This document shows, in pieces, positions 175 through 17,607 of a stretch of DNA of 64,000 nt (position 1 is the first letter of the stretch; each line of letters starts with the position of its first letter). The notes beneath the pieces were generated by a model. It saw only the letters and a list, made by a program, of their open reading frames with translations, made no database searches and was not told the DNA's origin. The stretch is from the NCBI GenBank assembly GCA_964464905.1, contig CAYXHC010000001.1:1097-65096 (forward strand), written 5' to 3'. The stretch comes from an uncultured Lachnospiraceae bacterium (lineage in GTDB: Bacteria > Bacillota > Clostridia > Oscillospirales > CAG-272). A program made the position numbers and the translations under genes.

Positions 175-203
175 ATTATAACACGGGGTATCAGGCTTGT
201 CAA
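175..203 (-). promoter_or_regulatory. SigA-type promoter upstream of rplM
   Basis: On the minus strand: TTGACA (203..198), 17 nt spacer, TATAAT (180..175). Both hexamers are consensus. It lies about 90 nt upstream of the rplM start. Confidence 0.7.
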
Positions 204-395: not shown

Positions 396-1835
396 TCAGC
401 CGAAAATATCGAGCTTTTCCATGCTCTTTTCAATCGCCTTGTTTATAGACTTCTGAAGCTTGGCATAGAGGGTGGCGGGACTCGCATTTACGTCCTGAAG
501 GGTGGTGTATGCGGAACCCCAGTTGAAGAATACGCCAAGGTCGTAGCTTCTCTGCTCAAATATGATATCAAGCATTGCGCCGGATTCCTCGTCACGGGAG
601 TAGCGGGACTTGAGCTGACCCTCGTAGTAGGCGGGAATGAGATAGTCGGATCCCTTTGCAGCCATGGCTTCAACGATGATGCTGGTGGTGTAGGGATCTT
701 CGCAGTTAAGACCAACGGTCATAACGCAGGAGGAAACGGCTATGTAGGAATAGTAACGCTTCTGATCGGAGTTCTGCTTGGGGAAGGGGACGATGCCGAA
801 ATCTTCTTCGTTTTCGCGGAAGCCGCGGGCGTGAGCGATGACCTCGGTCGCAAAGAGGGTTCTTGCTTCCTGGAAAATGAGACGCGCCTGATTGGAGTTA
901 TCGTAGCATTCGGTGTCACCCATTATGAGAACGAGCTTTTCAAAGGCGTTTACGAAAGCCTCGGAACCCCAGGCAATGGCGGGAACGCCGTCTTTGTCGA
1001 TCTCAACTAACTTGAGACCTGCAGACTGCCAGAATGCGGGATAGTTTTCGCTGTGACCTGCAATGCCGAAAATATCGGTGCCGCTGTCGGCAACTCCGTT
1101 TGCGTTAACGTCTTCTTTGACTATGTTGCCCATTTCGTACATCTTATCCCAGGTCCACTCGTTGTTGTTGACGAGGTCGTAGGGACTTTCGAGACCTGCA
1201 TTTTCGATCATAGACTTGGTGAAGTATACGCACCAGATACATTCCTTGTCGGAAAGGGCGATATCGCCGGAAATCATATAGTGTAATCCGCCGAGAGCGA
1301 GCTGATCGGTGCAGTCGCTGTTCCACCAGGCTTTGTCGAGGTTGATATAGTCGAATTCTTCGATGGGATAGCAGTATCCGGAACCTACCGCTGTTGCGGA
1401 GTAGCTCATATTGTTAAAGCAGATGTTGTAGTCCTGAGTGTTTGCATCAACGTCGGTCTTGAAAAGATTGTAAACAGACTCGCCCATTGACGCGGTGGCT
1501 TCGCTGATCTCGATGCCGAGGAGATCTTCAACCGCACGGTTGCGCTCGTAGACTGCCTGTTCGTAAGCATCGTCTGAGGGCTCGTCAAAGTCGCAGAGAG
1601 TGTAATTGTATGTAAGTATGTCGGGGGTGAGTATGGTGAATGCCATACCGTCAAACTTTTCGTTGGGGATCTCAAGAACGTCCTTTTGAGTATCGGCGTT
1701 TTCAGTCTCCGTGCTGCCGGTACCGGTGTCTGCAACGTCGCCCGTGCCCTCGCCGCCGTCAGCGGGATCGGAGCAGGCTGCCAGCGGAACCGTGATCATA
1801 AGAAGCACGAGCAGTAAACTTAATAATTTTCGCAT
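396..1835 (-). CDS. Extracellular solute-binding lipoprotein, LplA/LipO-like (SBP paralog 1)
   Basis: ORF track gives 396..1847. I moved the start to ATG 1835 (MRKLLSLLLVLLMITVPLAAC) because GGAGG sits 5 nt upstream. The lipobox is L-A-A-C, followed by a Gly/Thr/Asp-rich linker. The protein is about 60-65% identical by eye to the next two paralogs, e.g. WWNSDCT.QLALGG.HYM.SGDIALSDKECIW and YYEGQLKSRYSRDEESG.MLDIIF. Confidence 0.85.
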   Translation of the reverse strand: MRKLLSLLLVLLMITVPLAACSDPADGGEGTGDVADTGTGSTETENADTQKDVLEIPNEKFDGMAFTILTPDILTYNYTLCDFDEPSDDAYEQAVYERNRAVEDLLGIEISEATASMGESVYNLFKTDVDANTQDYNICFNNMSYSATAVGSGYCYPIEEFDYINLDKAWWNSDCTDQLALGGLHYMISGDIALSDKECIWCVYFTKSMIENAGLESPYDLVNNNEWTWDKMYEMGNIVKEDVNANGVADSGTDIFGIAGHSENYPAFWQSAGLKLVEIDKDGVPAIAWGSEAFVNAFEKLVLIMGDTECYDNSNQARLIFQEARTLFATEVIAHARGFRENEEDFGIVPFPKQNSDQKRYYSYIAVSSCVMTVGLNCEDPYTTSIIVEAMAAKGSDYLIPAYYEGQLKSRYSRDEESGAMLDIIFEQRSYDLGVFFNWGSAYTTLQDVNASPATLYAKLQKSINKAIEKSMEKLDIFG

Positions 1836-1873
1836 AATTACCTCCAATGTTTTTGTTATAACTGTACAATTTA

Positions 1874-1879
1874 ATGATA
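1874..1879 (-). promoter_or_regulatory. Probable -10 box (TATCAT) of the SBP1 promoter, inside a 15-nt block shared with the SBP2 promoter
   Basis: Plus-strand TTAATGATACAGCAT (1871-1885) is identical to 3575-3589 upstream of SBP2. On the gene strand it reads ATGCTGTATCATTAA. No good -35 hexamer is present. TGTGAA repeats lie just upstream (see findings). Confidence 0.5.
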
Positions 1880-2040
1880 CAGCATCACAGGCGGCAATAT
1901 GTGAACGAAAATAAAACTAATCATCAATATTGTGAAAATAATATTTCAAATATGTGAATAGAATTTCAAAAAGATTGAAAATCAGCGGAAGGAAGCCTTT
2001 GTCGCGTTTTGACGATCGGGAGGGGGATGACTTTTTGGGA

Positions 2041-2069
2041 AAACAAAAACCGGCAGAGAGATCTGCCGG
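2041..2069 (-). terminator. Rho-independent terminator after SBP paralog 2
   Basis: Stem CCGGCAGA (2050-2057) / TCTGCCGG (2062-2069) with loop GAGA. On the minus strand it is followed by TTTTTGTTT (plus-strand A-run 2041-2049). Confidence 0.8.
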
Positions 2070-2081
2070 TTTTATTATGTT

Positions 2082-3560
2082 GATCTTAGAGACCGAGCTT
2101 TTCGAACGCCTTTTCGATCTGCTTGTTGGTCTGCTTTTCTACCTTAGCGTAGAGGGAAGCGGGGTTAACGTCTACGCTCTTGAGGGAGGAGTACGCGGAG
2201 CCCCAGTTGAAGAATACGCCGAGGTCGTAGCAACGGTTAGCAAAGATGATGTCGAGCATTTCGCCGGACTCTTCGTCACGGGAGTAGCGGGACTTGAGCT
2301 GACCTTCGTAGTAAGCGGGCATAAGGATCTCGGAACCCTTGGCAGCCATAGCTTCGAGAATGATGCTGGTCTGGTAGGGGCTTGCGCAGTCCTTACCAAC
2401 GGTCATAACGCAGGAGTTAACTGCGATATAGGAGTAGTAGGTGTCAATGTCAGAGCTGTACTTGGGATAAGGAAGGATACCGAAGTCGTATTCGTTTTCA
2501 CGGTAGTCGCGAACGAAAGCGATAACCTCGGTTCCGAAGAGGCACTTACCTTCCTTAAGGCAGGTGGTGATGTGCGCAACAGCGTCGGAAACGGTGGAGG
2601 TGGTGGTCCAGTTTACGTTTTCGGTGTCGCCCATGAGCTCAACGATATCTTCGAATACGTTAACGAACTGTTCGGAGTTCCAGTTGATCTTGGGTGTGCC
2701 TGCTTCGTCAAGGGAAGCGAGGGTGAGACCTGCGGATTCCCAGCTTGCAGGGAAGTTTTCGCCGTGTGTAACGAAACCGTAGATGTCGCCGGAGTCGAGA
2801 GCGCCGGAGCCGTTTTCGTCAGAGGTAGCGGTCATAGCCATTTCGTGCATCTTGTCCCAGGTCCATTCGTTGTTCTTAACGAGCTGGTAGGGATCTTCGA
2901 GGCCCTTGTACTTTTCAATGAGTTCCTTGATGAAGTAAACAGCCCAGATACATTCCTTGTCGGAAAGGGCGATGTCGCCGGAGAGCATGTAGTGCATGCC
3001 GCCGAGAGCGAGCTGCTCGGTGCAGTCGCTGTTCCACCAGGACTTGTCGAGATCGATGTAATCGAACAGGTCAAGCTCGTAGCAGAGGCCGGCGCCGGTA
3101 GCGGTGCAGGAGTACTCCATCTGGTTGAAGGTTACGCCGTAGTCGCCGGTGTTAGCTTCAACGGCAGTCTTGAAGAGGGTGTAAACTTCGGAGCCGATGC
3201 CGGAGGAAACCTCGGTGATGGTGATGTTGAGGAGGTTCTCGACAGCGTCGTTACGCAGATAAAGAGCGTTTTCGTACATGTCTTCGGAAGGCTCGTCAAA
3301 ATCGGTTGCGGTGTAGTTATACGTAACTACGGTAGGAGTGAGAACTACGAATTCATAGCCGTCGAAGTCCTCTGCGGGGATCTCGAGAACGTCAGAAACG
3401 TCACCCGTGCCGGAAGTTTCAGTGCCGGTACCGGTGTTTGCAGCGTCTCCCGTGCCCTCGCCGTCATCAGCGGGATCGGAGCAGGATGCAAGCGGTACTG
3501 CGAGCATGAGAACTACAAGCAGTAAGCTTAAGAATTTTTTCATAAATACCTCCAAGTATT
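2082..3560. repeat. Direct repeat copy 1 (1479 bp) of a tandem duplication with period 1695 bp
   Basis: 2082..3560 matches 3777..5255. The translated ORFs in several frames on both strands are letter-identical in the ORF track: 485 aa, 75 aa and 80 aa on the minus strand, and 72 aa plus the 317-aa tail on the plus strand. The boundary bases differ (2081 t vs 3776 c; 3561 c vs 5256 t). Confidence 0.9.
2086..3543 (-). CDS. Extracellular solute-binding lipoprotein, LplA/LipO-like (SBP paralog 2, duplicate copy 1)
   Basis: ORF track gives 2086..3720. I placed the start at ATG 3543 (MKKFLSLLLVVLMLAVPLASC) with GGAGG 5 nt upstream. The lipobox is L-A-S-C. The 485-aa product is identical to that of 3781..5238. 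Confidence 0.85.
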   Translation of the reverse strand: MKKFLSLLLVVLMLAVPLASCSDPADDGEGTGDAANTGTGTETSGTGDVSDVLEIPAEDFDGYEFVVLTPTVVTYNYTATDFDEPSEDMYENALYLRNDAVENLLNITITEVSSGIGSEVYTLFKTAVEANTGDYGVTFNQMEYSCTATGAGLCYELDLFDYIDLDKSWWNSDCTEQLALGGMHYMLSGDIALSDKECIWAVYFIKELIEKYKGLEDPYQLVKNNEWTWDKMHEMAMTATSDENGSGALDSGDIYGFVTHGENFPASWESAGLTLASLDEAGTPKINWNSEQFVNVFEDIVELMGDTENVNWTTTSTVSDAVAHITTCLKEGKCLFGTEVIAFVRDYRENEYDFGILPYPKYSSDIDTYYSYIAVNSCVMTVGKDCASPYQTSIILEAMAAKGSEILMPAYYEGQLKSRYSRDEESGEMLDIIFANRCYDLGVFFNWGSAYSSLKSVDVNPASLYAKVEKQTNKQIEKAFEKLGL

Positions 3561-3577
3561 CTATGTTACTACTGTTA

Positions 3578-3583
3578 ATGATA
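3578..3583 (-). promoter_or_regulatory. Probable -10 box (TATCAT) of the SBP2 promoter
   Basis: Same 15-nt block as at 1871-1885. It lies about 35 nt upstream of ATG 3543. Three TGAA-type repeats with an 11-bp period start 23 nt further upstream, at 3606, 3617 and 3628. Confidence 0.5.
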
Positions 3584-3702
3584 CAGCATATTGCGTCTGT
3601 AATGATGAATAATGTGTGAACGTCGTGTGAATTCATGACGAAGGGGGCGGGAGGTAGTCTTTTTTTGCGATGAAGTGCCTGAATGTATTTTCGCAATAGA
3701 AA

Positions 3703-3742
3703 CAAAAAAAGGAAATACACACGCCGATGCGTGTGTATTTCC
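3703..3742 (-). terminator. Rho-independent terminator after SBP paralog 3
   Basis: 14-bp stem GGAAATACACACGC (3711-3724) / GCGTGTGTATTTCC (3729-3742) with loop CGAT. On the minus strand it is followed by TTTTTTTGTTT. Confidence 0.85.
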
Positions 3743-3776
3743 CTTTATCGGAATAAAAATCTAAACCGTTAGAATC

Positions 3777-5255
3777 GATCTTAGAGACCGAGCTTTTCGA
3801 ACGCCTTTTCGATCTGCTTGTTGGTCTGCTTTTCTACCTTAGCGTAGAGGGAAGCGGGGTTAACGTCTACGCTCTTGAGGGAGGAGTACGCGGAGCCCCA
3901 GTTGAAGAATACGCCGAGGTCGTAGCAACGGTTAGCAAAGATGATGTCGAGCATTTCGCCGGACTCTTCGTCACGGGAGTAGCGGGACTTGAGCTGACCT
4001 TCGTAGTAAGCGGGCATAAGGATCTCGGAACCCTTGGCAGCCATAGCTTCGAGAATGATGCTGGTCTGGTAGGGGCTTGCGCAGTCCTTACCAACGGTCA
4101 TAACGCAGGAGTTAACTGCGATATAGGAGTAGTAGGTGTCAATGTCAGAGCTGTACTTGGGATAAGGAAGGATACCGAAGTCGTATTCGTTTTCACGGTA
4201 GTCGCGAACGAAAGCGATAACCTCGGTTCCGAAGAGGCACTTACCTTCCTTAAGGCAGGTGGTGATGTGCGCAACAGCGTCGGAAACGGTGGAGGTGGTG
4301 GTCCAGTTTACGTTTTCGGTGTCGCCCATGAGCTCAACGATATCTTCGAATACGTTAACGAACTGTTCGGAGTTCCAGTTGATCTTGGGTGTGCCTGCTT
4401 CGTCAAGGGAAGCGAGGGTGAGACCTGCGGATTCCCAGCTTGCAGGGAAGTTTTCGCCGTGTGTAACGAAACCGTAGATGTCGCCGGAGTCGAGAGCGCC
4501 GGAGCCGTTTTCGTCAGAGGTAGCGGTCATAGCCATTTCGTGCATCTTGTCCCAGGTCCATTCGTTGTTCTTAACGAGCTGGTAGGGATCTTCGAGGCCC
4601 TTGTACTTTTCAATGAGTTCCTTGATGAAGTAAACAGCCCAGATACATTCCTTGTCGGAAAGGGCGATGTCGCCGGAGAGCATGTAGTGCATGCCGCCGA
4701 GAGCGAGCTGCTCGGTGCAGTCGCTGTTCCACCAGGACTTGTCGAGATCGATGTAATCGAACAGGTCAAGCTCGTAGCAGAGGCCGGCGCCGGTAGCGGT
4801 GCAGGAGTACTCCATCTGGTTGAAGGTTACGCCGTAGTCGCCGGTGTTAGCTTCAACGGCAGTCTTGAAGAGGGTGTAAACTTCGGAGCCGATGCCGGAG
4901 GAAACCTCGGTGATGGTGATGTTGAGGAGGTTCTCGACAGCGTCGTTACGCAGATAAAGAGCGTTTTCGTACATGTCTTCGGAAGGCTCGTCAAAATCGG
5001 TTGCGGTGTAGTTATACGTAACTACGGTAGGAGTGAGAACTACGAATTCATAGCCGTCGAAGTCCTCTGCGGGGATCTCGAGAACGTCAGAAACGTCACC
5101 CGTGCCGGAAGTTTCAGTGCCGGTACCGGTGTTTGCAGCGTCTCCCGTGCCCTCGCCGTCATCAGCGGGATCGGAGCAGGATGCAAGCGGTACTGCGAGC
5201 ATGAGAACTACAAGCAGTAAGCTTAAGAATTTTTTCATAAATACCTCCAAGTATT
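3777..5255. repeat. Direct repeat copy 2 (1479 bp)
   Basis: See copy 1. The repeat covers the stop codon, the whole CDS, the RBS and 17 nt of 5' UTR. It does not include the promoter or the terminator. Confidence 0.9.
3781..5238 (-). CDS. Extracellular solute-binding lipoprotein, LplA/LipO-like (SBP paralog 3, duplicate copy 2)
   Basis: ORF track gives 3781..5274. I placed the start at ATG 5238 with the same GGAGGTATTT-ATG context as copy 1. The protein is identical to 2086..3543. Confidence 0.85.
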   Translation of the reverse strand: MKKFLSLLLVVLMLAVPLASCSDPADDGEGTGDAANTGTGTETSGTGDVSDVLEIPAEDFDGYEFVVLTPTVVTYNYTATDFDEPSEDMYENALYLRNDAVENLLNITITEVSSGIGSEVYTLFKTAVEANTGDYGVTFNQMEYSCTATGAGLCYELDLFDYIDLDKSWWNSDCTEQLALGGMHYMLSGDIALSDKECIWAVYFIKELIEKYKGLEDPYQLVKNNEWTWDKMHEMAMTATSDENGSGALDSGDIYGFVTHGENFPASWESAGLTLASLDEAGTPKINWNSEQFVNVFEDIVELMGDTENVNWTTTSTVSDAVAHITTCLKEGKCLFGTEVIAFVRDYRENEYDFGILPYPKYSSDIDTYYSYIAVNSCVMTVGKDCASPYQTSIILEAMAAKGSEILMPAYYEGQLKSRYSRDEESGEMLDIIFANRCYDLGVFFNWGSAYSSLKSVDVNPASLYAKVEKQTNKQIEKAFEKLGL

Positions 5256-5496
5256 TATCGTGATAGATGTACAAAATAATTTTACAACTAAACCGTTTAC
5301 AAAAGGTTAATAAATTGTGAACGAAAGATTAACATAGTGAGATAATGAATAAAAAAACAAACTAATTGAGAAAAAATCCTCTGCCAATGGTATAACTTGA
5401 CGATTATCTTAAACAAATCTTAAGGTTTTGGGTTATTTTATCTTAATAATGTTTGTGGTACAATTGAAGCGTGAAATGAAAAAGGAGACGATATCT

Positions 5497-6201
5497 ATGT
5501 ACAACATACTCGTTTGCGATGACGAAAAGGATATAGTGTCGGCGCTTGAAATATATCTTTCGGCTGAGGGATACCGCGTTTATAAGGCGTATGACGGCGA
5601 GGAGGCGATAAGCACCGTGAGAACGGAAGAGATACATCTCGTGCTTCTGGACGTTATGATGCCGATGACGGACGGGCTCCGCGCTATGAGGCGCCTGCGT
5701 GAGTTTTCAAACGTGCCCGTTTTGCTGCTGACGGCGAAAAGCGAGGAAACGGACAAAATAGCGGGACTGAACCTGGGCGCCGACGATTACATAACGAAGC
5801 CTTTCAATCCGGTTGAGGTTGCGGCGCGGGTGAAGGCGAATCTGCGTCGTTATATGCAGCTTGGCGGCGGTGACGTGAAGGCTCTTGAAAGCGTTTACAG
5901 CGTTTCCGGCATCGTGATGGACGATAAAGCTCACACCGTTACGAGAGACGGCGAGCCTATATCGCTGACTCCCACCGAATACGATATACTGAAACTGTTT
6001 CTGATGCATCCCGACGAGCTGATGACGCCGAAGCGCATTTACGGCGCGGTCTGGGGCGGCAATTTCATCGGTGGCGAGGGGACCGTTGCCGTTCACATAC
6101 GTCATCTTCGCGAAAAACTTGAATACGATCCGTCCTCACCGAGATATCTTCGCGTTGTGTGGGGGCAGGGGTATAAGCTGTCAAGCATCGTTGGTGTTTG
6201 A
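5497..6201 (+). CDS. OmpR/PhoB-family response regulator (receiver plus winged-helix domain)
   Basis: ORF track gives 5428..6201. I placed the start at ATG 5497 (MYNILVCDDEKDIV) with AAGGAG 9 nt upstream. Receiver motifs are DD, LLDVMMP.DG and LLLTAK. The C-terminal end reads ...HIRHLREKLE...VWGQGYKL, typical of OmpR-type DNA-binding domains. Confidence 0.9.
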   Translation: MYNILVCDDEKDIVSALEIYLSAEGYRVYKAYDGEEAISTVRTEEIHLVLLDVMMPMTDGLRAMRRLREFSNVPVLLLTAKSEETDKIAGLNLGADDYITKPFNPVEVAARVKANLRRYMQLGGGDVKALESVYSVSGIVMDDKAHTVTRDGEPISLTPTEYDILKLFLMHPDELMTPKRIYGAVWGGNFIGGEGTVAVHIRHLREKLEYDPSSPRYLRVVWGQGYKLSSIVGV

Positions 6202-6233: not shown

Positions 6234-8156
6234 ATGAAAATGAAAAAACTTCAATGCTACAGATGGGCGCGAGTTGCGGCAGTGCTGCTGGCGGCTGTGA
6301 CGCTTACTGTTTTCTTTGGATCTGTCTTGGGGATCGTCGCTGCAGCAGATCTGGGACTCTATACACAAAGCTATGACAACGCAAAGGAAATGGCAGTGAC
6401 GGACGTGCTCTACGGCAATGCCTACCTTATAGTGAACGCCTACCGTGACAGCTATGTGCTTGGGTATTACTCACATTCACAGGCAAAAGCGCAGATGCAG
6501 GAAGCCGTGTTCCGCAAAAATCTTGATTTTGAGCTTTGGCGCGGGGAAGATATGCTCTATTCGTCTTATTCCGGTGTCGTTCCCGAGTCTGACGCTGTGT
6601 ATGAGCTTGGCGTGGCAGAGTACGGCGAGGGTGAATACAGCGTGCGTTTTTATCTTCTCAAAAACACGAAATGTTACGACGAGATCTATTTTATGGAGCA
6701 TTGGCTCGACAAGCTTTACGAAATGCGGTTCGCGCTCATCGTGATCTGCGTTTTGTCGTTGATCCTGTCGTTTTTGACGTGGCTTTTCGCCGTTTCTGCG
6801 GCGGGCAAGCGCCTCACCCTTGACGGATACGCAAGCGGCGTGCTGACGATGCTTGACCGCGTCCCTCTTGATCTGCTGCTGGCTTTTGCTGCAGCGGCTG
6901 TGTTTGTCGAGGCTCTCATATACGACTTCAACCACGACATAGGAGACATATTTACCGCCGTGCTTCTCGGCGTGTACGTTTTCGTTGATTCCGTATTCGT
7001 CACTCTTTTGTCGATGACCGTGAAGGTGCGTGTCGTAACGAAGACGGCACTTGATAACAATATCACGGCGATGCTTCTCAGACTGGGGTATAAGCTTGTA
7101 GTCCGGATATGGGAATGTATAAAGTCGGGAGCGAGGCTGATGGTGAAAATCGTTCGGTGCGTTCCCATGTTCTGGCGGACGCTGACTGCAACGATCGCCA
7201 TGACGGTGATAAGCTTCGTTATTACGTGTCTGGCTGCCGGAAACAGCGACGCGGCAATATTCCTTTTCGTGCTGTTTTGGCTTGCGGTAACGGTGTGGCT
7301 CTGCTTCTCCGCCTGGAATATGACGATACTCCGTCGGGGCGCCAAGCGTATCGCCGAAGGTGACCTTTCCTATCGCATCGACACGAAATATCTTCTTTTT
7401 GATTTTAAGCGTCACGCCGATGACCTTAACAGTATCAAAAACGGTATGGCAACGGCGGTGGAGGAACGGATGCGCGGCGAGATGTTCAAAACCGAGCTTA
7501 TCACCAACGTGTCCCACGATATAAAGACGCCTCTGACTTCAATAATAAATTACGTGGATCTTTTGAAAAAATGCGGAGTGGAAAATGAAGAAGCAAGAGG
7601 GTATATCGAGGTGCTCGACCGCCAATCCGCGAGACTCAAAAAGCTGACGGAGGATCTTGTAACTGCCTCGAAGGCGTCGTCGGGCGTCGTTAAAGCGGAG
7701 CTTAAGCCCTGCGATCTCGGGATCTTCGTTGAACAGACGGCGGGCGAATATGAAGAAAAGCTTGCGAAGGCGGATCTTAAGCTCGTGGTGTCAACGCCCG
7801 ACTATCCCGTTACCGTGGAGGCTGACGGCAAGCTTCTCTGGCGCATCTTCGATAACCTTATGAACAACGCTTTGAAATATTCGCTTCCGGGGTCGCGGGT
7901 GTACCTGTCTCTTAAAGAAAATGAAAGAGAAGGAACGGTGACGGTGACGAATGTGTCCCGCGAGCCGATAACGCGCGACGGGGGAGAGCTTACGGAAAGG
8001 TTCGTTCGCGGCGACGATTCCCGACATACGGAAGGCTCGGGACTCGGACTCTCTATCGCCAAAAGCTTCACGGAGCTTCAGAGAGGTACTTTTGACGTAA
8101 CGGCGGACTATGATCTGTTCCGCGTGACGGTGAAGTTTCCTTTGCCGGAGGAGTGA
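6234..8156 (+). CDS. Multi-pass membrane sensor histidine kinase (HisKA plus HATPase_c)
   Basis: The H-box is ELITNVSHDIKTPLTSI. The N box is NLMNNALKYS and the G boxes are GSGLGLSIAKS. TM1 is followed by an extracytoplasmic stretch of about 130 aa. Several further hydrophobic helices precede a HAMP-like linker. The gene starts 33 nt downstream of the response regulator stop. Confidence 0.9.
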   Translation: MKMKKLQCYRWARVAAVLLAAVTLTVFFGSVLGIVAAADLGLYTQSYDNAKEMAVTDVLYGNAYLIVNAYRDSYVLGYYSHSQAKAQMQEAVFRKNLDFELWRGEDMLYSSYSGVVPESDAVYELGVAEYGEGEYSVRFYLLKNTKCYDEIYFMEHWLDKLYEMRFALIVICVLSLILSFLTWLFAVSAAGKRLTLDGYASGVLTMLDRVPLDLLLAFAAAAVFVEALIYDFNHDIGDIFTAVLLGVYVFVDSVFVTLLSMTVKVRVVTKTALDNNITAMLLRLGYKLVVRIWECIKSGARLMVKIVRCVPMFWRTLTATIAMTVISFVITCLAAGNSDAAIFLFVLFWLAVTVWLCFSAWNMTILRRGAKRIAEGDLSYRIDTKYLLFDFKRHADDLNSIKNGMATAVEERMRGEMFKTELITNVSHDIKTPLTSIINYVDLLKKCGVENEEARGYIEVLDRQSARLKKLTEDLVTASKASSGVVKAELKPCDLGIFVEQTAGEYEEKLAKADLKLVVSTPDYPVTVEADGKLLWRIFDNLMNNALKYSLPGSRVYLSLKENEREGTVTVTNVSREPITRDGGELTERFVRGDDSRHTEGSGLGLSIAKSFTELQRGTFDVTADYDLFRVTVKFPLPEE

Positions 8157-8267: not shown

Positions 8268-8329
8268 AATAGTAGCCGGAGGGCGCCCTCCGTTATGATA
8301 GGTTCGCAGAACCTATCATAATAAACCTT
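8268..8329 (+). promoter_or_regulatory. Conserved 62-nt two-hairpin leader element, copy A
   Basis: 58 of 62 nt are identical to 12123-12184. It contains a 16-nt perfect palindrome, CGGAGGGCGCCCTCCG (8277-8292). It also contains a 13-bp perfect-stem hairpin, TTATGATAGGTTC-GCA-GAACCTATCATAA (8293-8321). No U-tract follows the hairpin. Confidence 0.8.
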
Positions 8330-8379
8330 TATGGCGGGAAGTTCCGACGGCACGAAAATTTATTTTGGAGGAACTTTTC

Positions 8380-9237
8380 ATGAAAAAGATTCTTGCTCTC
8401 GTAATGGTAGTTGCAATGCTCGCATGCTTCGCTACCGCTACATCCGCTGCAGAAATGAAGTTTGTTGAAGAAGCAAGCTTTGATTTCAGCACCACCGAAG
8501 GCCTCAAGGGCTATACCGCAAGCTGGCCCGGTAACGACCTCATGTGCAACGCTGCTGCTGCAGAGGTTGCTGAAGGCGTTATCGTTGACGGCGCATTCGT
8601 TGCAGGCACCATGGGCTTCGTTGTAGACGAAGTATTTGATGCTACCAACGGTATCAAGATCAAGATGGACATTACCATCGACAAGACCAAGGTTGGCGGT
8701 TCTCCCTGGTTCCAGGGCGTTGCTTCCTTCTTTAATGCAGACGGCAAGTCCGCTGAATTCCTCGCTCTCGCTGGCGAAGAGTTCGAGCACTCCTACGATG
8801 CATACTACCTCAACTACAAGGGTTCCGGTACTCACTTCCAGGCACATACCGGTGACCTCGGCGAAGGCGCTACCGGCAACAATGTTGTTTGGGGCGGCGA
8901 CGTTGCTGAAGACCTCGTTACCGACGATGCTCCCACCTGGAGCGGCACTGTAGAATTCATCGTTGTTCCCGCTGAAACCGGCGCTACCGTTACCATCCTT
9001 GTTGACGGCGTTGACATCGGTCTCCCCAACAACCCCGAATTCGCAAACTTCCTCTCTGACGAAATGCTCGTTACCATCGGTGCTACTCACTACGGCGACT
9101 ATGCACTCGCTTCCACCATTGATAACGTTGTTATCTACACCATGCAGGAAGAAGCTACTCAGACCGGTTTCGCTACTGTTGCTCTCGCAATCGTTGCAAT
9201 CGGTTCCGGCGCTTACATCGTATCCAAGAAGCACTAA
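8380..9237 (+). CDS. Secreted ConA/LamG-like (DUF1080-like) beta-sandwich protein with a C-terminal QTG-TM-KKH anchor
   Basis: ORF track gives 8365..9237. I placed the start at ATG 8380 with GGAGGA 8 nt upstream. The signal peptide is MKKILALVMVVAMLACFATATSA/AE. The C-terminus is EEATQTGFATVALAIVAIGSGAYIVSKKH (motif, hydrophobic helix, basic tail). The fold call is by eye from the beta-rich pattern ending ...STIDNVVIY. Confidence 0.7.
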   Translation: MKKILALVMVVAMLACFATATSAAEMKFVEEASFDFSTTEGLKGYTASWPGNDLMCNAAAAEVAEGVIVDGAFVAGTMGFVVDEVFDATNGIKIKMDITIDKTKVGGSPWFQGVASFFNADGKSAEFLALAGEEFEHSYDAYYLNYKGSGTHFQAHTGDLGEGATGNNVVWGGDVAEDLVTDDAPTWSGTVEFIVVPAETGATVTILVDGVDIGLPNNPEFANFLSDEMLVTIGATHYGDYALASTIDNVVIYTMQEEATQTGFATVALAIVAIGSGAYIVSKKH

Positions 9238-9253
9238 TTATTGGATCAAAAAA

Positions 9254-9278
9254 GGCTCCCTAAAGGGGGCCTTTTTTT
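9254..9278 (+). terminator. Rho-independent terminator
   Basis: Stem GGCTCCC (9254-9260), loop TAAA, stem GGGGGCC (9265-9271), followed by TTTTTTT (9272-9278). It is nearly the same hairpin as at 10190-10213. Confidence 0.85.
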
Positions 9279-9307
9279 AGATGGGCATCAAAATTGTAAA
9301 TAAAGTG

Positions 9308-9336
9308 TTGACAAAGTTTTTATGCGGTGTTATTAT
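9308..9336 (+). promoter_or_regulatory. SigA-type promoter for the second surface-protein gene
   Basis: TTGACA (9308-9313), 17 nt spacer, TATTAT (9331-9336). Confidence 0.7.
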
Positions 9337-9390
9337 GAGATATAAAGTTTTGATGCTTCATCAAAAACAAAAAAACATGGAGGAACTTTT

Positions 9391-10170
9391 ATGAAAAAGA
9401 TTCTTGCTCTCGTAATGGTAGTTGCTATGCTCGCATGCTTCGCTACCGTTGCAAACGCTGCTGCTCCCGAAGGACAGATTGCGTACTACACCTTTGACGC
9501 TGCTGACGAAGCAGGCCTCACCGTAAACGGCGACAACGCTACCTACGCTGACGGCGCTGTTACTCTCGGCGACGCTACTTACCTCACTGCGGACATCGAT
9601 CTTTCCGGTGTTACCGCTATGACCGTTGCTCTCAAGGTTAAGATCACCGATACTGATGCTAACTGGGGCTTTGAGATCACCTCTGAAGAGGCTCACTCCT
9701 GGCCGGCTGAGCATTACATCGGCTGCCTCCTCAACGGCAGTGCTGTGATCGAACGCTACAACAACACCGACGGTCGTCCCAATTCCGCTTCCGCTACTAT
9801 CGCGGTTGACGAATGGGTTGAGCTCGTAGTTGTTCTTCCTGAAGACGGCTCCATCGTTCTTTATGCTGACGGCGCAGAAGTTGCTAACGTTCCTCAGACC
9901 GAAGGCTTCGACCTCGCTATCGCAAACTGCATCGGCGAAACTCCCGTATTCCAGATTGGTAAGGCTAACTGGGGCGAAGGCGAATACGCTGCAGGCACCT
10001 CCATCGACACTTTTGCAGTTTACAACACTGCTCTCTCTGCTGACGAAGTAGCTACCGCTCTCGAAGCTCCCGCAGCAGACGAAGAAGCTGCTCAGACCGG
10101 TTTCGCTACCGTTGCTCTCGCAATCGTTGCAATCGGCTCCGGCGCTTACATCGTGTCTAAGAAGCACTAA
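9391..10170 (+). CDS. Secreted LamG-domain protein with a C-terminal QTG-TM-KKH anchor
   Basis: GGAGGA lies 7 nt upstream of the start. The signal peptide is MKKILALVMVVAMLACFATVANA/AA. The LamG-like hallmark is ...IGKANWGEGEYAAGTSIDTFAVYNTALSADEV, resembling the common ...D.V.IYNRALSA.EI ending. The C-terminus is EEAAQTGFATVALAIVAIGSGAYIVSKKH. Confidence 0.75.
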   Translation: MKKILALVMVVAMLACFATVANAAAPEGQIAYYTFDAADEAGLTVNGDNATYADGAVTLGDATYLTADIDLSGVTAMTVALKVKITDTDANWGFEITSEEAHSWPAEHYIGCLLNGSAVIERYNNTDGRPNSASATIAVDEWVELVVVLPEDGSIVLYADGAEVANVPQTEGFDLAIANCIGETPVFQIGKANWGEGEYAAGTSIDTFAVYNTALSADEVATALEAPAADEEAAQTGFATVALAIVAIGSGAYIVSKKH

Positions 10171-10189
10171 TTCCTGAATGAGCGAAAAA

Positions 10190-10213
10190 GGCTCCCGAAA
10201 GGGAGCCTTTTTT
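10190..10213 (+). terminator. Rho-independent terminator
   Basis: Stem GGCTCCC (10190-10196), loop GAAA, stem GGGAGCC (10201-10207), followed by TTTTTT. Confidence 0.85.
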
Positions 10214-10257
10214 GCGTTAAAATGCTGCGTTTGATTCAGTTAATGTTAATAAACGTA

Positions 10258-10286
10258 TTGCACCGGAGCGGGTTATATGGTATAAT
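10258..10286 (+). promoter_or_regulatory. SigA-type promoter for the lectin-like lipoprotein gene
   Basis: TTGCAC (10258-10263), 17 nt spacer, TATAAT (10281-10286). Confidence 0.7.
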
Positions 10287-10325
10287 AATCTTGCAATATC
10301 CTATATAATATAAGGAGAATTATTC

Positions 10326-11675
10326 ATGAAAAAGATACTTGCTCTTTTACTTGCCGTTATGATGCTGGCAGCTCTCGTTGCCTGCGACGATGGCAGTCTG
10401 CCTCCCGTTGACGGAGAAAGCGATAGCGAAGGCACGGGAACGGGCGAAGGCACCGAAACTGAGGCAGAATCCGAAACCGAAGAAGAAGACGAGGACTATG
10501 TCCCTGACTTTGAAGCGAAATACGGCGGCTGCGTCGGTGTGGGCGTTGAGTCCGGCTCCGCTTACTTCGATAACCTTAAGGTTGTGTCTAAGCAGACCGA
10601 TAAGAAGGAGCTCTACTACGATGAGCTCGAGGGCGAGCTTCCCGTTCTCACTTACGTTACGGGTGCTGAAGCCGATTGGGCTGTTGCTGTTGACCCCACC
10701 GAGGATGAAGATGAGGATGATCCCAACCACGCTCTCGGATACACGGGCTCTTCCGCTTCTATGGTGACCTTCGGTTCCTCCAACTGGAATTACTATCAGT
10801 ATTCCATGAAGGTGTATCCCGTTGACGACACCACAGTTATCGATCTTTATTTCTGCGTTACCGATGCTGATAACTATTTCGTCGTTTCCGTTGGCGGAAA
10901 CGATGGCGATTCCCTTTGCTATCAGGTAGTCGGCGGCGAGAAGACGGCTGTTGCGCCCAGTGTTTACGCTCCCGTTGAGATCGGTGAATGGACCTCCGTC
11001 GGCATTACCGTTGAACGTGAGACCATCGATATCTACATCGGCGGCACCAAGCGCTTCTCTCTCTTTAATGATGAATTCGAATACAGCATGACCATCGCAA
11101 ACAGAGCTACCGTTAACGCTCCTTACTGCGCTTCCTGGGAAACTCCCGGCTCCATTAACGACGGTATGTATCCTGACGCTACCTACGCTTCCGTTTCCAA
11201 CGGTACCGCTTACGGCTCCTGGAGCATGGCAGATATATCCGAGACCATTTCTTACGAATGGGACGAGGCTGTGACTGTTGACGGTATCGGTCTCTTCTTC
11301 TGGCAGGACAAGGAAACCCGTGAATACTGGCTCGAAAACGGCGGTATCCACTCTGCTTCCTACTATACCATCCAGTATCTCGATGAAAACGGCGACTACG
11401 TAGACGTTGAAAATGCTGTTGGTCTTGAGGTTCTCGATGACGTTATGAACCAGACCTTCTTCGATGCTGTTACCACCACGTCAATTCAGGTAACTCTCTA
11501 TAAGTTCACCGAAGAGGAGGATGCTACCTACAGATTCTCCGAATATAAGGAGTATGAAGCAAACGGCGGCGATGTCGATGCTGAAGATGCACCTACGGAT
11601 CCTTCCATCCGCGGACTCGGACTCTTTGAGTTTGAAGTGTACGCAGCAGGCACAGTTGAAAGACCCGAGGAATGA
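10326..11675 (+). CDS. Lipoprotein with an acidic linker, a ConA/LamG-like domain and a C-terminal discoidin/galactose-binding-like domain
   Basis: The signal and lipobox are MKKILALLLAVMMLAALVAC. A Glu/Asp/Thr-rich linker follows. FDNLKV and ...IDIYIGG... strands resemble DUF1080/LamG. The C-terminal half (ASWETPGSINDG...GSWS...ISYEWDEAVTVDGIGLFFWQD...) looks like an F5/8-type-C carbohydrate-binding module. Domain calls are by eye. Confidence 0.6.
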   Translation: MKKILALLLAVMMLAALVACDDGSLPPVDGESDSEGTGTGEGTETEAESETEEEDEDYVPDFEAKYGGCVGVGVESGSAYFDNLKVVSKQTDKKELYYDELEGELPVLTYVTGAEADWAVAVDPTEDEDEDDPNHALGYTGSSASMVTFGSSNWNYYQYSMKVYPVDDTTVIDLYFCVTDADNYFVVSVGGNDGDSLCYQVVGGEKTAVAPSVYAPVEIGEWTSVGITVERETIDIYIGGTKRFSLFNDEFEYSMTIANRATVNAPYCASWETPGSINDGMYPDATYASVSNGTAYGSWSMADISETISYEWDEAVTVDGIGLFFWQDKETREYWLENGGIHSASYYTIQYLDENGDYVDVENAVGLEVLDDVMNQTFFDAVTTTSIQVTLYKFTEEEDATYRFSEYKEYEANGGDVDAEDAPTDPSIRGLGLFEFEVYAAGTVERPEE

Positions 11676-12122: not shown

Positions 12123-12184
12123 AATAGCAGCCGGAGGGCGCCCTCCGTTATGATAGGTTCTGCGAACCTATCATAATAAACCTT
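12123..12184 (+). promoter_or_regulatory. Conserved 62-nt two-hairpin leader element, copy B
   Basis: It has the same palindrome (12132-12147) and the same 13-bp stem (12148-12160 / 12164-12176) as copy A. The 3-nt loop is TGC here, the reverse complement of GCA in copy A. One further substitution is at 12128. Confidence 0.8.
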
Positions 12185-12285: not shown

Positions 12286-14748
12286 ATGACAACTTTCAAG
12301 AGACTTATGAGCGTGCTGCTTGTTCTCTGTATGTTGTCCGTAGCTTTCGTTTCCTGCTCTAACAAGGGCGGCGACGCGAAGGTCGGTAACTATACATATA
12401 ACAGCTACGCAAGCAGTCTCGGAACCAACTGGAACCCCCACACGTGGGAAGTAAGTTCCGATGACGCTATCCTCGGCTACGTAAGCTCCCCCTTCTGCAC
12501 GATGCAGGTTTCCGATTCCGAAAACGGCGTCTACCAGTGGGTGTATGAGATGGCTACCTCTATCGAGGACGTAACCAAGGATCACCAGGACGATCTCACC
12601 AAGTATGCTGTAACACTTCCCGAAGGCCAGTCGGCTTCCGAGACCACCGAAGGTTACGTTTACGAGATCAAGCTCAATGAAGATGCTAAGTGGGAAAACG
12701 GCACTCCTATCAATGCTGACACCTACATCTACTCCATGAAGGCTCTTCTTGACCCCGCTATGAAGAACTACCGCGCTAACCTCTACTATGCAGGCGAATC
12801 TGCAGTAGCAGGCGGTAATGCTTACTACTATAGCGGAGACATTGCATGGGATACCGATCTCATGGGTGCTGAAACCCTCGAAACCATCGTTAAGGGCGAA
12901 GACGGCACTTACACCACCTCTGATGGCAAGCCCATCGCTGTAGCTCTCACCTCCGCGCTTGATTGGCTCAGCGGATACGCTCTTTCCGACTACGTTGACG
13001 CTTACGGCGAAGCATACTTCGGCGTTGCAGATTACGAAACCCTTTCTGCTATGGCAGTTGGCGGCTTTGTACCCGTAACCGACGAAGTTATCGACCTTAT
13101 GGAAGGCGTTATCACCGCTGTTGAAGCTTGGGGCGAAACCAGAGCTGACGTAGCTCAGTACTTCTACTCCGGTACTCAGATGCCTGAGGCTACCTACGAC
13201 GTTGTAGGCTGCTACAAGGTTGACGATTACACCATTCGTTATGTATGCCAGACATACCTCGACAAAAACTACTTCCTCACCTCCTGCACCTCTACCTGGC
13301 TCGTATATGAAGATCTCTACGAAGCAGGAAAGGACACCACCGGTACTCTCGTAACCACTAACTACAACTCTTCTCCTGAAACCACCATGTCCTACGGTCC
13401 TTACAGAATCGAGTCCATGCAGAACGACAAGCAGATCGTTTACGTTCAGAATGAGAACTGGTACGGCTACGAAAAGGAAGGCGACTACCTCGTATCCTAC
13501 ACTCCTTACCTCGTTGACGGTAAGAACGTACAGCGCTACATGACCACCAAGATCGTTATCAACGTTATGGATAACGACGCTGCAAAGCTCGCGTTCCTTA
13601 AGGGTGACCTTGACGACTGGGCTCCCAGTGCAGACGACCTCGTTAACTACGCTATGAGCGAACAGCTCTACAAGGTTGACGAAACCTACACCATGTCCTT
13701 CTTCTTCAACACAGACGTTTCTATGCTCCAGGAGATGGATAACTCCAAGGGTAACATCAACTCCGTTGTTCTTTCAAACTACAACTTCCGTAAGGCATTC
13801 TCCCTTGCAGTTGACCGTACTGAGTTTGTAACCGCTACCGAAGGCTACAAGCCCGCTTACGCACTTATGAACAACCTCTACTTCTACGACGTATACAACG
13901 ATCCTAACTCCTCCTACAGAGGCTCTGATGAGGCTATGCAGGCAGTCTGCGATCTTTACGGCGTAAAGTACGGTGAAGGTACTCCTTATGCAACTCTCAA
14001 GGAAGCATACGACTCCATCACCGGTTACAACCTTACTGAAGCTAAGGCTCTCATGGCAACCGCTTGCCAGGAGCTCGTAGATGCAGGCCTCTACACCGCA
14101 GGTGAAGACATCACCATCCGTATCGGCTGGTCCAAGTCTGCTCTCACTTCTGCTGATAACAATCAGATCGCTCTTATGAACAAGTACATCAACGCTGCTG
14201 TTGAAGGATCCGGCTTCGGCAAGATCACTCTCGAAGGCGTTGGCTCCGTTGAAGACCGTTACGGCGACGTTCCCGCAGGTAACTTCGCAATCGGTTACGG
14301 CGCATGGGGCGGTGCTGCGTTCTATCCTTTCCGTAACTTCCAGGTTTACTGCGACACCGAGCAGTATGCAGGCCAGATCAATGAAATGGCATGCTGGGAT
14401 CCTTCCGTTGAAGAGCTCACTCTCACGGTAGACGGCAAGGAAGTAACTATGACATGGCAGGAATGGTCTCGTTCCATGACCGGTACCGGCCAGTTCGCAA
14501 CTGCAGACTTCTCCGTTAAGCTCGCTATCACGGCTCAGATGGAAAAGCTCTTCCTTGAAAAGTACTACAGAATCCCCTTCTGCGGAACTACTATATGCTC
14601 TATGCTCTCCTACAAGTGCAACTACTACACCGATGAATACAACATCATGTACGGTTTCGGCGGACTTGAGCTTATGACCTACAACTACACCGATGAAGAA
14701 TGGGCAGAATTCTGCGCTGAACAGAATGGCGATATTAAGTACGAATAA
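12286..14748 (+). CDS. ABC transporter substrate-binding lipoprotein, family 5 (Opp/Dpp-type), unusually long at 820 aa
   Basis: The signal and lipobox are MTTFKRLMSVLLVLCMLSVAFVSC. By eye the layout is family-5: ...YVYEIKLNEDAKWENGTPINADTYIYSMKALLDP..., then ...YGPYRIES...VYVQNENWYG... It is followed by Opp-type permeases and ATPases. Confidence 0.8.
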   Translation: MTTFKRLMSVLLVLCMLSVAFVSCSNKGGDAKVGNYTYNSYASSLGTNWNPHTWEVSSDDAILGYVSSPFCTMQVSDSENGVYQWVYEMATSIEDVTKDHQDDLTKYAVTLPEGQSASETTEGYVYEIKLNEDAKWENGTPINADTYIYSMKALLDPAMKNYRANLYYAGESAVAGGNAYYYSGDIAWDTDLMGAETLETIVKGEDGTYTTSDGKPIAVALTSALDWLSGYALSDYVDAYGEAYFGVADYETLSAMAVGGFVPVTDEVIDLMEGVITAVEAWGETRADVAQYFYSGTQMPEATYDVVGCYKVDDYTIRYVCQTYLDKNYFLTSCTSTWLVYEDLYEAGKDTTGTLVTTNYNSSPETTMSYGPYRIESMQNDKQIVYVQNENWYGYEKEGDYLVSYTPYLVDGKNVQRYMTTKIVINVMDNDAAKLAFLKGDLDDWAPSADDLVNYAMSEQLYKVDETYTMSFFFNTDVSMLQEMDNSKGNINSVVLSNYNFRKAFSLAVDRTEFVTATEGYKPAYALMNNLYFYDVYNDPNSSYRGSDEAMQAVCDLYGVKYGEGTPYATLKEAYDSITGYNLTEAKALMATACQELVDAGLYTAGEDITIRIGWSKSALTSADNNQIALMNKYINAAVEGSGFGKITLEGVGSVEDRYGDVPAGNFAIGYGAWGGAAFYPFRNFQVYCDTEQYAGQINEMACWDPSVEELTLTVDGKEVTMTWQEWSRSMTGTGQFATADFSVKLAITAQMEKLFLEKYYRIPFCGTTICSMLSYKCNYYTDEYNIMYGFGGLELMTYNYTDEEWAEFCAEQNGDIKYE

Positions 14749-14794
14749 TTCTGATAACTGAAATAATCATACTGAATACACCATAAAAAAGGCG

Positions 14795-14926
14795 GCAGGG
14801 GGGAATTTGATCCCCCCTGCTAACCTTGATTTTTCGGGTTGATGAAAATTGTTCCTTTTTTCGTTCGAGATCGTTCACTCCGACGTCCCGTTGGACGGGC
14901 ATTCCGAGCGGATCATCTCGAGCGAA
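14795..14926 (+). promoter_or_regulatory. Structured spacer between the SBP and permease genes (two hairpins)
   Basis: Hairpin 1 is GCAGGGGGGA (14795-14804) / TCCCCCCTGC (14811-14820). Hairpin 2 has outer stem TTCGTTCGAGAT (14860-14871) / ATCTCGAGCGAA (14915-14926, one G-U pair) and inner stem CCCGT-TGG-ACGGG. No clean U-tract follows either hairpin. Confidence 0.55.
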
Positions 14927-14984
14927 GAATCAACTATTTTTCACTCTATAATCTACCATCCCTTAAGCTAAGGAGAATAACGTT

Positions 14985-15950
14985 ATGACGAAATACGTTA
15001 TAAAAAGAATCCTTTTGATGTTCTTCACGCTGTTCGTTATTGTTACGATCGCGTTTACGCTTATAAGACTGCTCCCTCAGCAGCCGCCGGACGGACTCGA
15101 CGCGAACCAGCGAAAAGCAGTTCTTGATCGTTGGAGAGCTCTTGGTTATGAAGAGCCCATTCCTACGCAGTTTGCGATCTACCTGAAGAATATCTTCACA
15201 AACGGAGACTTCGGCACGTCCTGGTCTATTGACTACCGTGAGCCTGCCCTTGATCTTCTTTTGTCCAGACTTCTTCCCACCGTTATCGTAAACCTTTATT
15301 CACTGCTGTTCTCCATCCCGATAGGTATCGGCCTCGGCATTTATGCAGCAGTCAAGAAAAATAAATGGCAGGACTCCTTCATAAGCACTATCGTTATGGT
15401 GTTTATTTCCGTGCCCTCCTACGTTTATGCCTTCCTCGTTCAGTATTTCTTCTATTATAAGTGGAACCTTCTGCCTCAGCTCGTTTCGTCTCTTGCGGAT
15501 GCGGGCGGTTCCTGGTTCTCCTGGAAGATGTTCGTAAGTATGATCTCCCCCGTGCTTGCGCTCTCCTTCGGTGAGATCGCAGGTCTTTGCCGTTTCACAA
15601 GAGCAGAGCTTACGGAGACCCTTACCTCCGACTATATGCTGCTCGCACGCACGAAGGGACTTACCCGCGCGCAGGCAACCACCCGTCACGCACTTAAAAA
15701 TGCAATGGTGCCGATCCTCCCCATGATCATTTCCAGCTTCGTTGGCATCCTCGGCGGTTCTATGATCATCGAACAGATCTTCTCCGTTCCCGGCGTTGGT
15801 CAGCTCTATATGCGTTCCATCAATCTGCTTGACTACGACGTATTTATGGTCGATACTGTATTCTACACGTTTATCGGACTTCTTGCCGGCATCGTCGTTG
15901 ATATAAGCTACGGCTTCATCGATCCGAGAATCAGAATGGGAGAAAAATAA
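14985..15950 (+). CDS. ABC transporter permease, OppB/DppB-like
   Basis: 321 aa, six predicted TM segments. The EAA-type loop reads LARTKGLTRAQATTRHALKNAMVPILP. AAGGAG lies 9 nt upstream of the ATG. Confidence 0.9.
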   Translation: MTKYVIKRILLMFFTLFVIVTIAFTLIRLLPQQPPDGLDANQRKAVLDRWRALGYEEPIPTQFAIYLKNIFTNGDFGTSWSIDYREPALDLLLSRLLPTVIVNLYSLLFSIPIGIGLGIYAAVKKNKWQDSFISTIVMVFISVPSYVYAFLVQYFFYYKWNLLPQLVSSLADAGGSWFSWKMFVSMISPVLALSFGEIAGLCRFTRAELTETLTSDYMLLARTKGLTRAQATTRHALKNAMVPILPMIISSFVGILGGSMIIEQIFSVPGVGQLYMRSINLLDYDVFMVDTVFYTFIGLLAGIVVDISYGFIDPRIRMGEK

Positions 15951-15951
15951 T

Positions 15952-17604: not shown

Positions 17605-17607
17605 GTC

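Follow-up and report, generated by a model that had tools for sequence, protein, structure and literature searches.

A perfect gene-length repeat in an uncultured Lachnospiraceae bacterium, probably a lipoprotein gene pair kept alike by homologous exchange

Results

A lipoprotein gene present in two identical copies

The DNA analysed here is a 64,000-nucleotide (nt) stretch, hereafter the window, from an uncultured Lachnospiraceae bacterium (GenBank assembly GCA_964464905.1, contig CAYXHC010000001.1, positions 1,097 to 65,096 of the forward strand; all coordinates below are window positions unless stated), in which the gene for a putative solute-binding lipoprotein lies twice within one perfect repeat. 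Exact string comparison of positions 2082-3560 (copy 1, gene B, minus strand) with 3777-5255 (copy 2, gene C, minus strand) gave 0 mismatches in 1479 nt, and the match, designated R, could not be extended by even one base on either side. Beyond both edges, the flanks fall to 15-35% identity over the adjoining 20-200 nt, which is the level of random sequence. The coding sequences (2086-3543 and 3781-5238) specify identical proteins of 485 amino acids (aa) with the lipoprotein signal MKKFLSLLLVVLMLAVPLASC. At its 5' edge the repeat includes 17 nt of leader, with a GGAGG, ahead of the ATG (3543 and 5238), and at its 3' edge it runs 4 nt (GATC) past the TAA stop (2086-2088 and 3781-3783). A perfect repeat of 1479 nt cannot have originated by chance. 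A first-pass annotation of this DNA, made by eye, had described two fully identical copies ending 17 nt before the start codon and 4 nt past the stop; no scattered substitutions emerged from the string comparison, and both edges hold with the genes read on the minus strand.

The copies recur with a period of 1695 nt as against a repeat length of 1479 nt, the difference being a unique 216-nt spacer between them (spacer Y, 3561-3776, minus strand). A repeat search of the 64-kb window returned this identical pair and an older third paralog (398-1847, 75-85% nucleotide identity in patches), with no other long repeat in the window. The third gene, A (396-1835, minus strand), encodes 479 aa with 64% identity to the B/C product. 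Codon identity between A and B/C at conserved residues ranged from 0.37 to 0.85, with exact runs of up to 32 nt, and the codon-identity scan showed no clear tract of patchy conversion between them.

Together, C, B and A form a tandem array of separately transcribed genes between a divergent two-component system and rplM, which lies downstream of A. The two-component system comprises an OmpR/PhoB-type response regulator with receiver and Trans_reg_C domains (5497-6201, plus strand) and a multi-pass membrane histidine kinase with HisKA and HATPase_c domains (6234-8156, plus strand). Ahead of rplM, just past the terminator of A, stands a perfect promoter (TTGACA-17-TATAAT, preceded by a TG; 175-203, minus strand). 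An Rfam search of 1-13 kb returned no known RNA element above threshold, including a ribosomal leader ahead of rplM.

Terminators and promoters between the genes

Spacer Y has the appearance of a true intergenic sequence separating two genes of the family, because it contains first a terminator, that of C (hairpin 3707-3746), and then a promoter, that of B. Spacer X (1836-2081, minus strand) carries the terminator of B (hairpin 2046-2073) and the promoter of A, and the divergent intergenic region Z (5256-5496) holds the promoter of C. Each of the genes C, B and A is followed by its own strong hairpin and T tract (3707-3746, 2046-2073 and 354-381, respectively), with folding z-scores of -8.1 and -6.7 for the first two.

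All three predicted promoters lie on the minus strand. That of B consists of TTCACA (3626-3631), TTCACA (3615-3620) and TTCATC (3604-3609) with a -10 hexamer TATCAT (3578-3583), and that of A of TTCACA at 1900-1905, 1931-1936 and 1953-1958 with the -10 hexamer TATCAT at 1874-1879. The promoter of C has TTCACA (5316-5321), TTAACC (5305-5310) and a -10 hexamer TAAAAT (5279-5284), as located by aligning the orthologous promoters; another candidate -10 for C, TATCAC at 4 nt from the repeat edge, was dropped on the basis of the same alignment. In A and B, the -10 hexamer lies inside the 15-mer TTAATGATACAGCAT, which occurs exactly twice in the window (1871-1885 and 3575-3589), upstream of these two genes; none of 100 shuffled sequences contained two matches. 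This 15-mer constitutes the -10 block, of which C has a diverged counterpart. Although the regions upstream of C, B and A are different in sequence, all three contain these boxes in a common arrangement. For B and C, the distances from the 11-nt-spaced TTCACA-like hexamers to the -10 hexamer downstream are 37 and 26 nt. The pattern TTCACA-N5-TTCACA, with up to two mismatches, has seven matches in the window, four of them upstream of C, B or A, and a GTTnACA core is kept in the orthologous promoters.

Promoters activated by OmpR/PhoB-type regulators carry pho-box-like direct repeats with 11-bp spacing near the -35 position. In the present locus, candidate boxes are spaced at 11 nt and an OmpR-family gene lies next door. 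With candidate boxes of this direct-repeat type, the promoters of B and C are probable outputs of the neighbouring regulator, and the two genes are probably wired to the same regulator, presumably the adjacent OmpR-family protein.

These features bear on the regulatory part of the first-pass annotation. The promoter block that it saw in common between copy 1 and paralog A is the 15-mer, found at both and nowhere else in the window; the terminators of the two copies do differ, and copy 2 indeed faces the promoter region of the divergent response regulator. Its emphasis on different upstream DNA for each copy is justified at the level of sequence but doubtful at the level of control, as the promoters are of the same type with the same geometry of boxes and -10 hexamer.

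A second candidate site complicates this assignment. A perfect TTAAGA-N5-TTAAGA in Z (5407-5423, minus strand), 74 nt from the ATG of the regulator, recurs once per locus in all of the relatives (L001, L003 and L023-L028) at 72-74 nt from the regulator start; the annotations of L025 and L026 place it at 32 nt, probably due to a start codon called too early. This element is likely to be the operator of the regulator operon. It is better conserved than the TTCACA boxes and may be the true site of the regulator.

The duplicated protein

The B/C product is a lipoprotein whose signal peptide ends in LASC and which also contains a linker rich in Gly, Thr and Asp, features that it has in common with the binding proteins of Gram-positive bacteria. 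Its AlphaFold2 model, built with 46 homologues, reached a mean pLDDT of 89.4 and a pTM of 0.85. When this predicted structure was compared with the PDB by Foldseek, all top matches were family-1 binding proteins (probability 1.00, TM-score 0.5-0.69), at a sequence identity of only 11-16%. The model thereby supports a bilobal family-1 solute-binding-protein fold, the same predicted fold as in family-1 ATP-binding cassette (ABC) binding proteins for sugars and oligosaccharides such as Lmo0181 (5f7v), GacH (3k01), TMBP (1eu8), CbpB (7x0i) and AbnE (6rjy). PF01547 or PF13416 domains occur in more distant homologues (31-35% identity, E ~1e-70), which bear the name extracellular solute-binding protein.

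Unlike these family-1 ABC binding proteins, the B/C protein has no Pfam match above the gathering threshold, no match in a sequence search of the PDB and no permease nearby: no MalF/G-type permease was present among the genes scanned up to ~45 kb. Paralog A scored 22.9 bits against PF13416 (SBP_bac_8), under the cut-off of 27. The sole ABC system among the scanned genes is of the Opp type (12286-21023) and has its own family-5 binding protein. The original label of solute-binding protein is therefore upheld by the fold and the distant homologues, and not by a Pfam hit above threshold.

Array structure in related Clostridia

The arrangement of regulator and kinase genes, divergent lipoprotein gene or genes and then rplM is kept in related uncultured Clostridia, with a number of paralogs that varies between one, two and three: one in L025, and two in L023 and L027. 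In L003, two paralogs are separated by genes for an extracytoplasmic function (ECF) sigma factor and a 557-aa protein. This segment (L003, 11676-13927) encodes the ECF-type sigma factor first and the 557-aa protein second; the C-terminal ~430 residues of the latter are 42% identical to the duplicated protein, and it resembles an anti-sigma-like protein with a binding-protein sensor domain, for which a Pfam search found nothing.

In the tree, B and C group with the regulator-adjacent 'type-1' gene of all relatives, and A groups with the rplM-proximal 'type-2' gene. Neighbouring paralogs in the other genomes share 41-82% protein identity, and the pair with 100% identity is exceptional among the tandem pairs of this family. 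The conservation extends to the non-coding sequence: spacer X is orthologous in L004 and L043, and the 17-nt leader block AATACTTGGAGGTATTT is kept upstream of orthologues in four other species and also upstream of the A-type gene of L004.

The L004 contig (MEGAHIT k141), which represents the species-level relative SGB_2163, opens midway through its type-1 gene (L004, 1-805), whose nucleotide identity to R is 91%. Orthologues of X and A come next. The contig break inside the gene might reflect a partial repeat in this relative, and no second contig was found. A search for closer strains in the genome collection gave species-level relatives only, the metagenome collection contained no relative above 53% aa identity, and the protein search returned a single relative above 90%.

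The locus in a sister strain

One sister strain (GCA_964543685.1) carries the locus on two contigs, L001 (7301 nt) and L043 (2382 nt). L001 is colinear with window positions 10812-3506 at 98.07% identity, spanning the regulator, Z, C and Y, and ends exactly 55 nt into B. These 55 nt match the first 55 nt of C in the same strain, with a difference at the 56th base, so that the 5' edge of the repeat is the same in the sister strain as in the window. L043 takes in the final 25 nt of B, followed by X, A and rplM, with 98.6% identity. The sister contigs are thus broken at both edges of copy B, and no separate body of B was present among the homologues or the cluster members from that assembly. This pattern is the usual signature of the collapse of a repeat by short-read assembly, and B appears to have been collapsed onto C.

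The possibility that only a single copy exists, and that the duplication is a mis-assembly or a mixture of strain variants, was raised in the first-pass annotation, and metagenome bins can be chimeric. However, the junctions from R to Y and from Y to R are both present in two independent assemblies of different samples, and Y contains a proper terminator and a promoter with the box and -10 geometry of the family. A single-copy locus is for these reasons highly improbable. As the two assemblies both show the two Y junctions, it is firmly established that the gene is present at least twice. The actual number of copies may be higher.

Since the sister strain shares both the layout and the 5' edge of the repeat, the arrangement of copy, spacer and copy is older than the split of the strains; the gene-spacer-gene layout therefore predates it. 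The divergence accumulated since that split is visible across the locus. Between L001 and the window there are 22 substitutions in the 1479 nt of R (1.49%), 5 in the 216 nt of Y (2.31%; 97.7% identity), 5 in the 241 nt of Z (2.07%) and 59 in the 1923 nt of the kinase gene at 6234-8156 (3.07%), the most diverged part of the region. Downstream of the kinase gene, 2.7 kb differ at 0.94%. Half of the 22 changes in R alter the protein (11 aa differences), and 5 of the 22 lie in the N-terminal linker.

Within the window, by comparison, B and C differ at 0 of 1479 positions as against the 22 that separate its C from the C of the sister strain. If the two copies had been diverging freely from a time before the strains separated, they should by now differ at ~22 sites or more, and by our calculation the Poisson P(0) of observing none is ~3e-10. 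The contrast between 0 differences among the copies and 22 among the strains supports homogenisation of the pair.

Other repeats beside the locus

Three tandem paralogs on the plus strand at 8376-11675 (8376-9237, 9391-10170 and 10326-11675) encode lectin-like Laminin_G_3 proteins and are alike only at their ends, at 91-92% nucleotide identity, with diverged middles. The shared 5' 75 nt encode the signal peptide. A hydrophobic C-terminal anchor (...GFATVALAIVAIGSGAYIVSKKH) is specified by the final 99 nt, and this 3' block is common to the first two genes only. The trio is possibly another example of patchy homogenisation, or else of module sharing, at the locus. In addition, a 62-nt element occurs on the plus strand at 8268-8329 and 12123-12184 with 94% identity, just upstream of the first lectin-like gene and of the gene for an 820-aa family-5 binding protein, respectively. 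It comprises two adjacent hairpins (z-scores -3.8 and -4.1), occurs in the sister strain as well and matched no Rfam family.

Discussion

Age and origin of the pair

Taken with the strain comparison, the perfect repeat is in our view probably a real pair of genes older than the split of the strains that has been kept identical, or nearly so, by homologous exchange. Such concerted evolution could proceed through gene conversion or unequal crossing-over, a mechanism that we infer from the pattern in the sequences. In the scenario that we propose, RecA-type homologous exchange between B and C, either as gene conversion or as rounds of unequal crossing-over, would homogenise a tract ending where alignable sequence ends, at the ribosome-binding block AATACTTGGAGGTATTT on the 5' side and just past the stop codon on the 3' side. 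Because that leader block is conserved, homology-dependent exchange would end there, and the tract would stop at the 5' edge of the repeat.

The first-pass annotation had offered either a very recent duplication or ongoing gene conversion as the reason for the absence of divergence, and only the second part of that statement agrees with our results. A very recent duplication, too young for substitutions to have accumulated and with no conversion involved, would account for 0 differences in 1479 nt and would fit the variable copy number among related species. This explanation is nevertheless very unlikely, as the same layout and the same 5' edge are found in the sister strain, whose divergence over the locus is 1.5-3% and whose Y differs at 5 of 216 nt. 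The geometry of the repeat also disagrees with it: the period of 1695 nt is not equal to the repeat length of 1479 nt, and Y is unrelated to the junction of downstream and upstream flanks that a duplication should have left. Given this period and a spacer unlike the other flanks, a one-step tandem duplication is excluded; apart from short motifs (the 15-mer), Y has no similarity to the beginning of X or the final part of Z.

The close fit of the edges to the gene, with 17 nt ahead of the ATG and 4 nt beyond the stop, might instead suggest a gene-sized cassette inserted non-homologously by a mobile element or through an RNA intermediate. We regard this as scarcely credible, since no inverted repeats and no target duplications were found, there was no plasmid or phage match, and no mobility gene is nearby, the neighbours being the two-component system, the lectin-like proteins and the Opp transporter. 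The repeat also lacks the terminator that would be expected in the copy of a transcript. Its 5' edge coincides with a leader block that is conserved across orthologues, for which exchange limited by homology suffices.

Assembly and the true identity of the copies

A more substantial concern is that the perfection of the repeat was produced by the assembler. The two copies could both be real and perhaps 97-99.9% alike, with a short-read graph assembler having merged them into one edge that was then traversed twice. For a de Bruijn assembler, the structure Z-R-Y-R-X forms a simple loop, and once R is collapsed into a single edge there is only one path through it. The sister assembly, the only other one of this lineage, is a short-read scaffold in which L001 carries a 10-N gap, and the interruptions at both edges of B show that the repeat is beyond the resolution of short reads. 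Short reads in general resolve repeats poorly (PMC12046097). On the other side, the sequence itself shows no sign of collapse, the window contains no N, and the 64-kb contig passes cleanly through the repeat. Near-identity of the copies would, moreover, still require homogenisation given the 1.5% divergence between the strains, and even at 99% identity between B and C homogenisation would still be implied. We therefore consider an assembler merge of imperfect copies to be unlikely, though deserving of more weight than an origin by recent duplication.

Several observations weigh against a pair homogenised by exchange. A bubble-popping de Bruijn assembler faced with the loop R-Y-R writes the same edge twice, and a divergence of a few percent could then look perfect. 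No conversion event was seen directly. The comparison of paralogs with orthologs is one-sided, given that it could be made for the window only, with one copy body assembled in the sister strain. An explanation of the contig breaks by k=55 fits the end of L001 and not the start of L043, where the overlap is 25 nt. Lastly, no source of Y was found: when Y was searched by short-word BLAST in the whole window plus all 43 loci, only Y itself, the sister strain and the 15-mer came up. Y may have originated as flanking sequence of an older paralog, the coding part of which was later overwritten. A related candidate, descent of Y from a copy of Z and X with subsequent divergence, could not be demonstrated, since global alignments of the three upstream regions scored barely above shuffles (z = 1.7-2.0).

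Comparison with known systems

Concerted evolution of duplicated bacterial genes has been documented for tufA/tufB and for the multi-copy amoA/amoB/hao genes of Nitrosomonadales (PMC6053082). As in the tuf and amo/hao systems, the copies described here are alike within the genome while the orthologues diverge between genomes, the flanks differ, and the identity spans the gene. Unlike in those systems, the copies are not dispersed but adjacent, with a period of 1695 nt, and the adjacency of B and C makes unequal crossing-over as good a route to homogenisation as gene conversion. The time depth is also shallow here, at the level of strains (~1.5%) and with two genomes, and the gene is that of an accessory lipoprotein rather than a core, highly conserved gene.

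The locus can also be viewed alongside gene amplification. RecA-dependent tandem amplification and the collapse of direct repeats are reported for Salmonella and E. coli in the literature of Roth and Andersson, and the locus fits the known instability of direct repeats in general. As in such systems, recombination between the two direct repeats of 1.5 kb could expand the array to at least three copies or collapse it to one, and variation in copy number through recombination between the copies, as predicted in the first-pass annotation, is plausible. Classical amplification units, however, lie head-to-tail, with a repeat equal to the period and a novel junction, whereas here the copies are separated by a 216-nt spacer that contains a terminator and a promoter, and the analysis revealed no copy-number variants. 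The pair is a new instance of a known process, concerted evolution being as much a textbook phenomenon as recombination between direct repeats.

Possible function and wider meaning

Under continued exchange, the B and C proteins would be forced to remain alike while their promoters and terminators stay different. Two promoters driving one protein would give a higher dosage, from which we infer a possible benefit, and possibly separate tuning. A further and decidedly speculative idea, which we think rather improbable, is that the pair is a selected design in which one protein is placed under two differently tuned promoters of the same regulon and its identity is enforced by conversion. In that case the proteins would possibly act as extracellular co-sensors of the kinase and not as feeders of a transporter, and the array would be a sensing module tunable by copy number. 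The co-sensor role is suggested by the lack of a nearby permease, together with the middle slot of L003, where an ECF sigma factor is followed by a protein with a C-terminal domain of the same family.

The comparison with a sister strain illustrates how a recent duplication can be told from homogenisation. It also identifies the locus as a trap for short-read assemblies and metagenome bins, with one copy missing from the sister genome, and counts of such genes in bins of gut Clostridia are likely to be too low. The pair would provide a clean and small example in which promoters and terminators diverge while the coding sequence and the ribosome-binding site stay identical.

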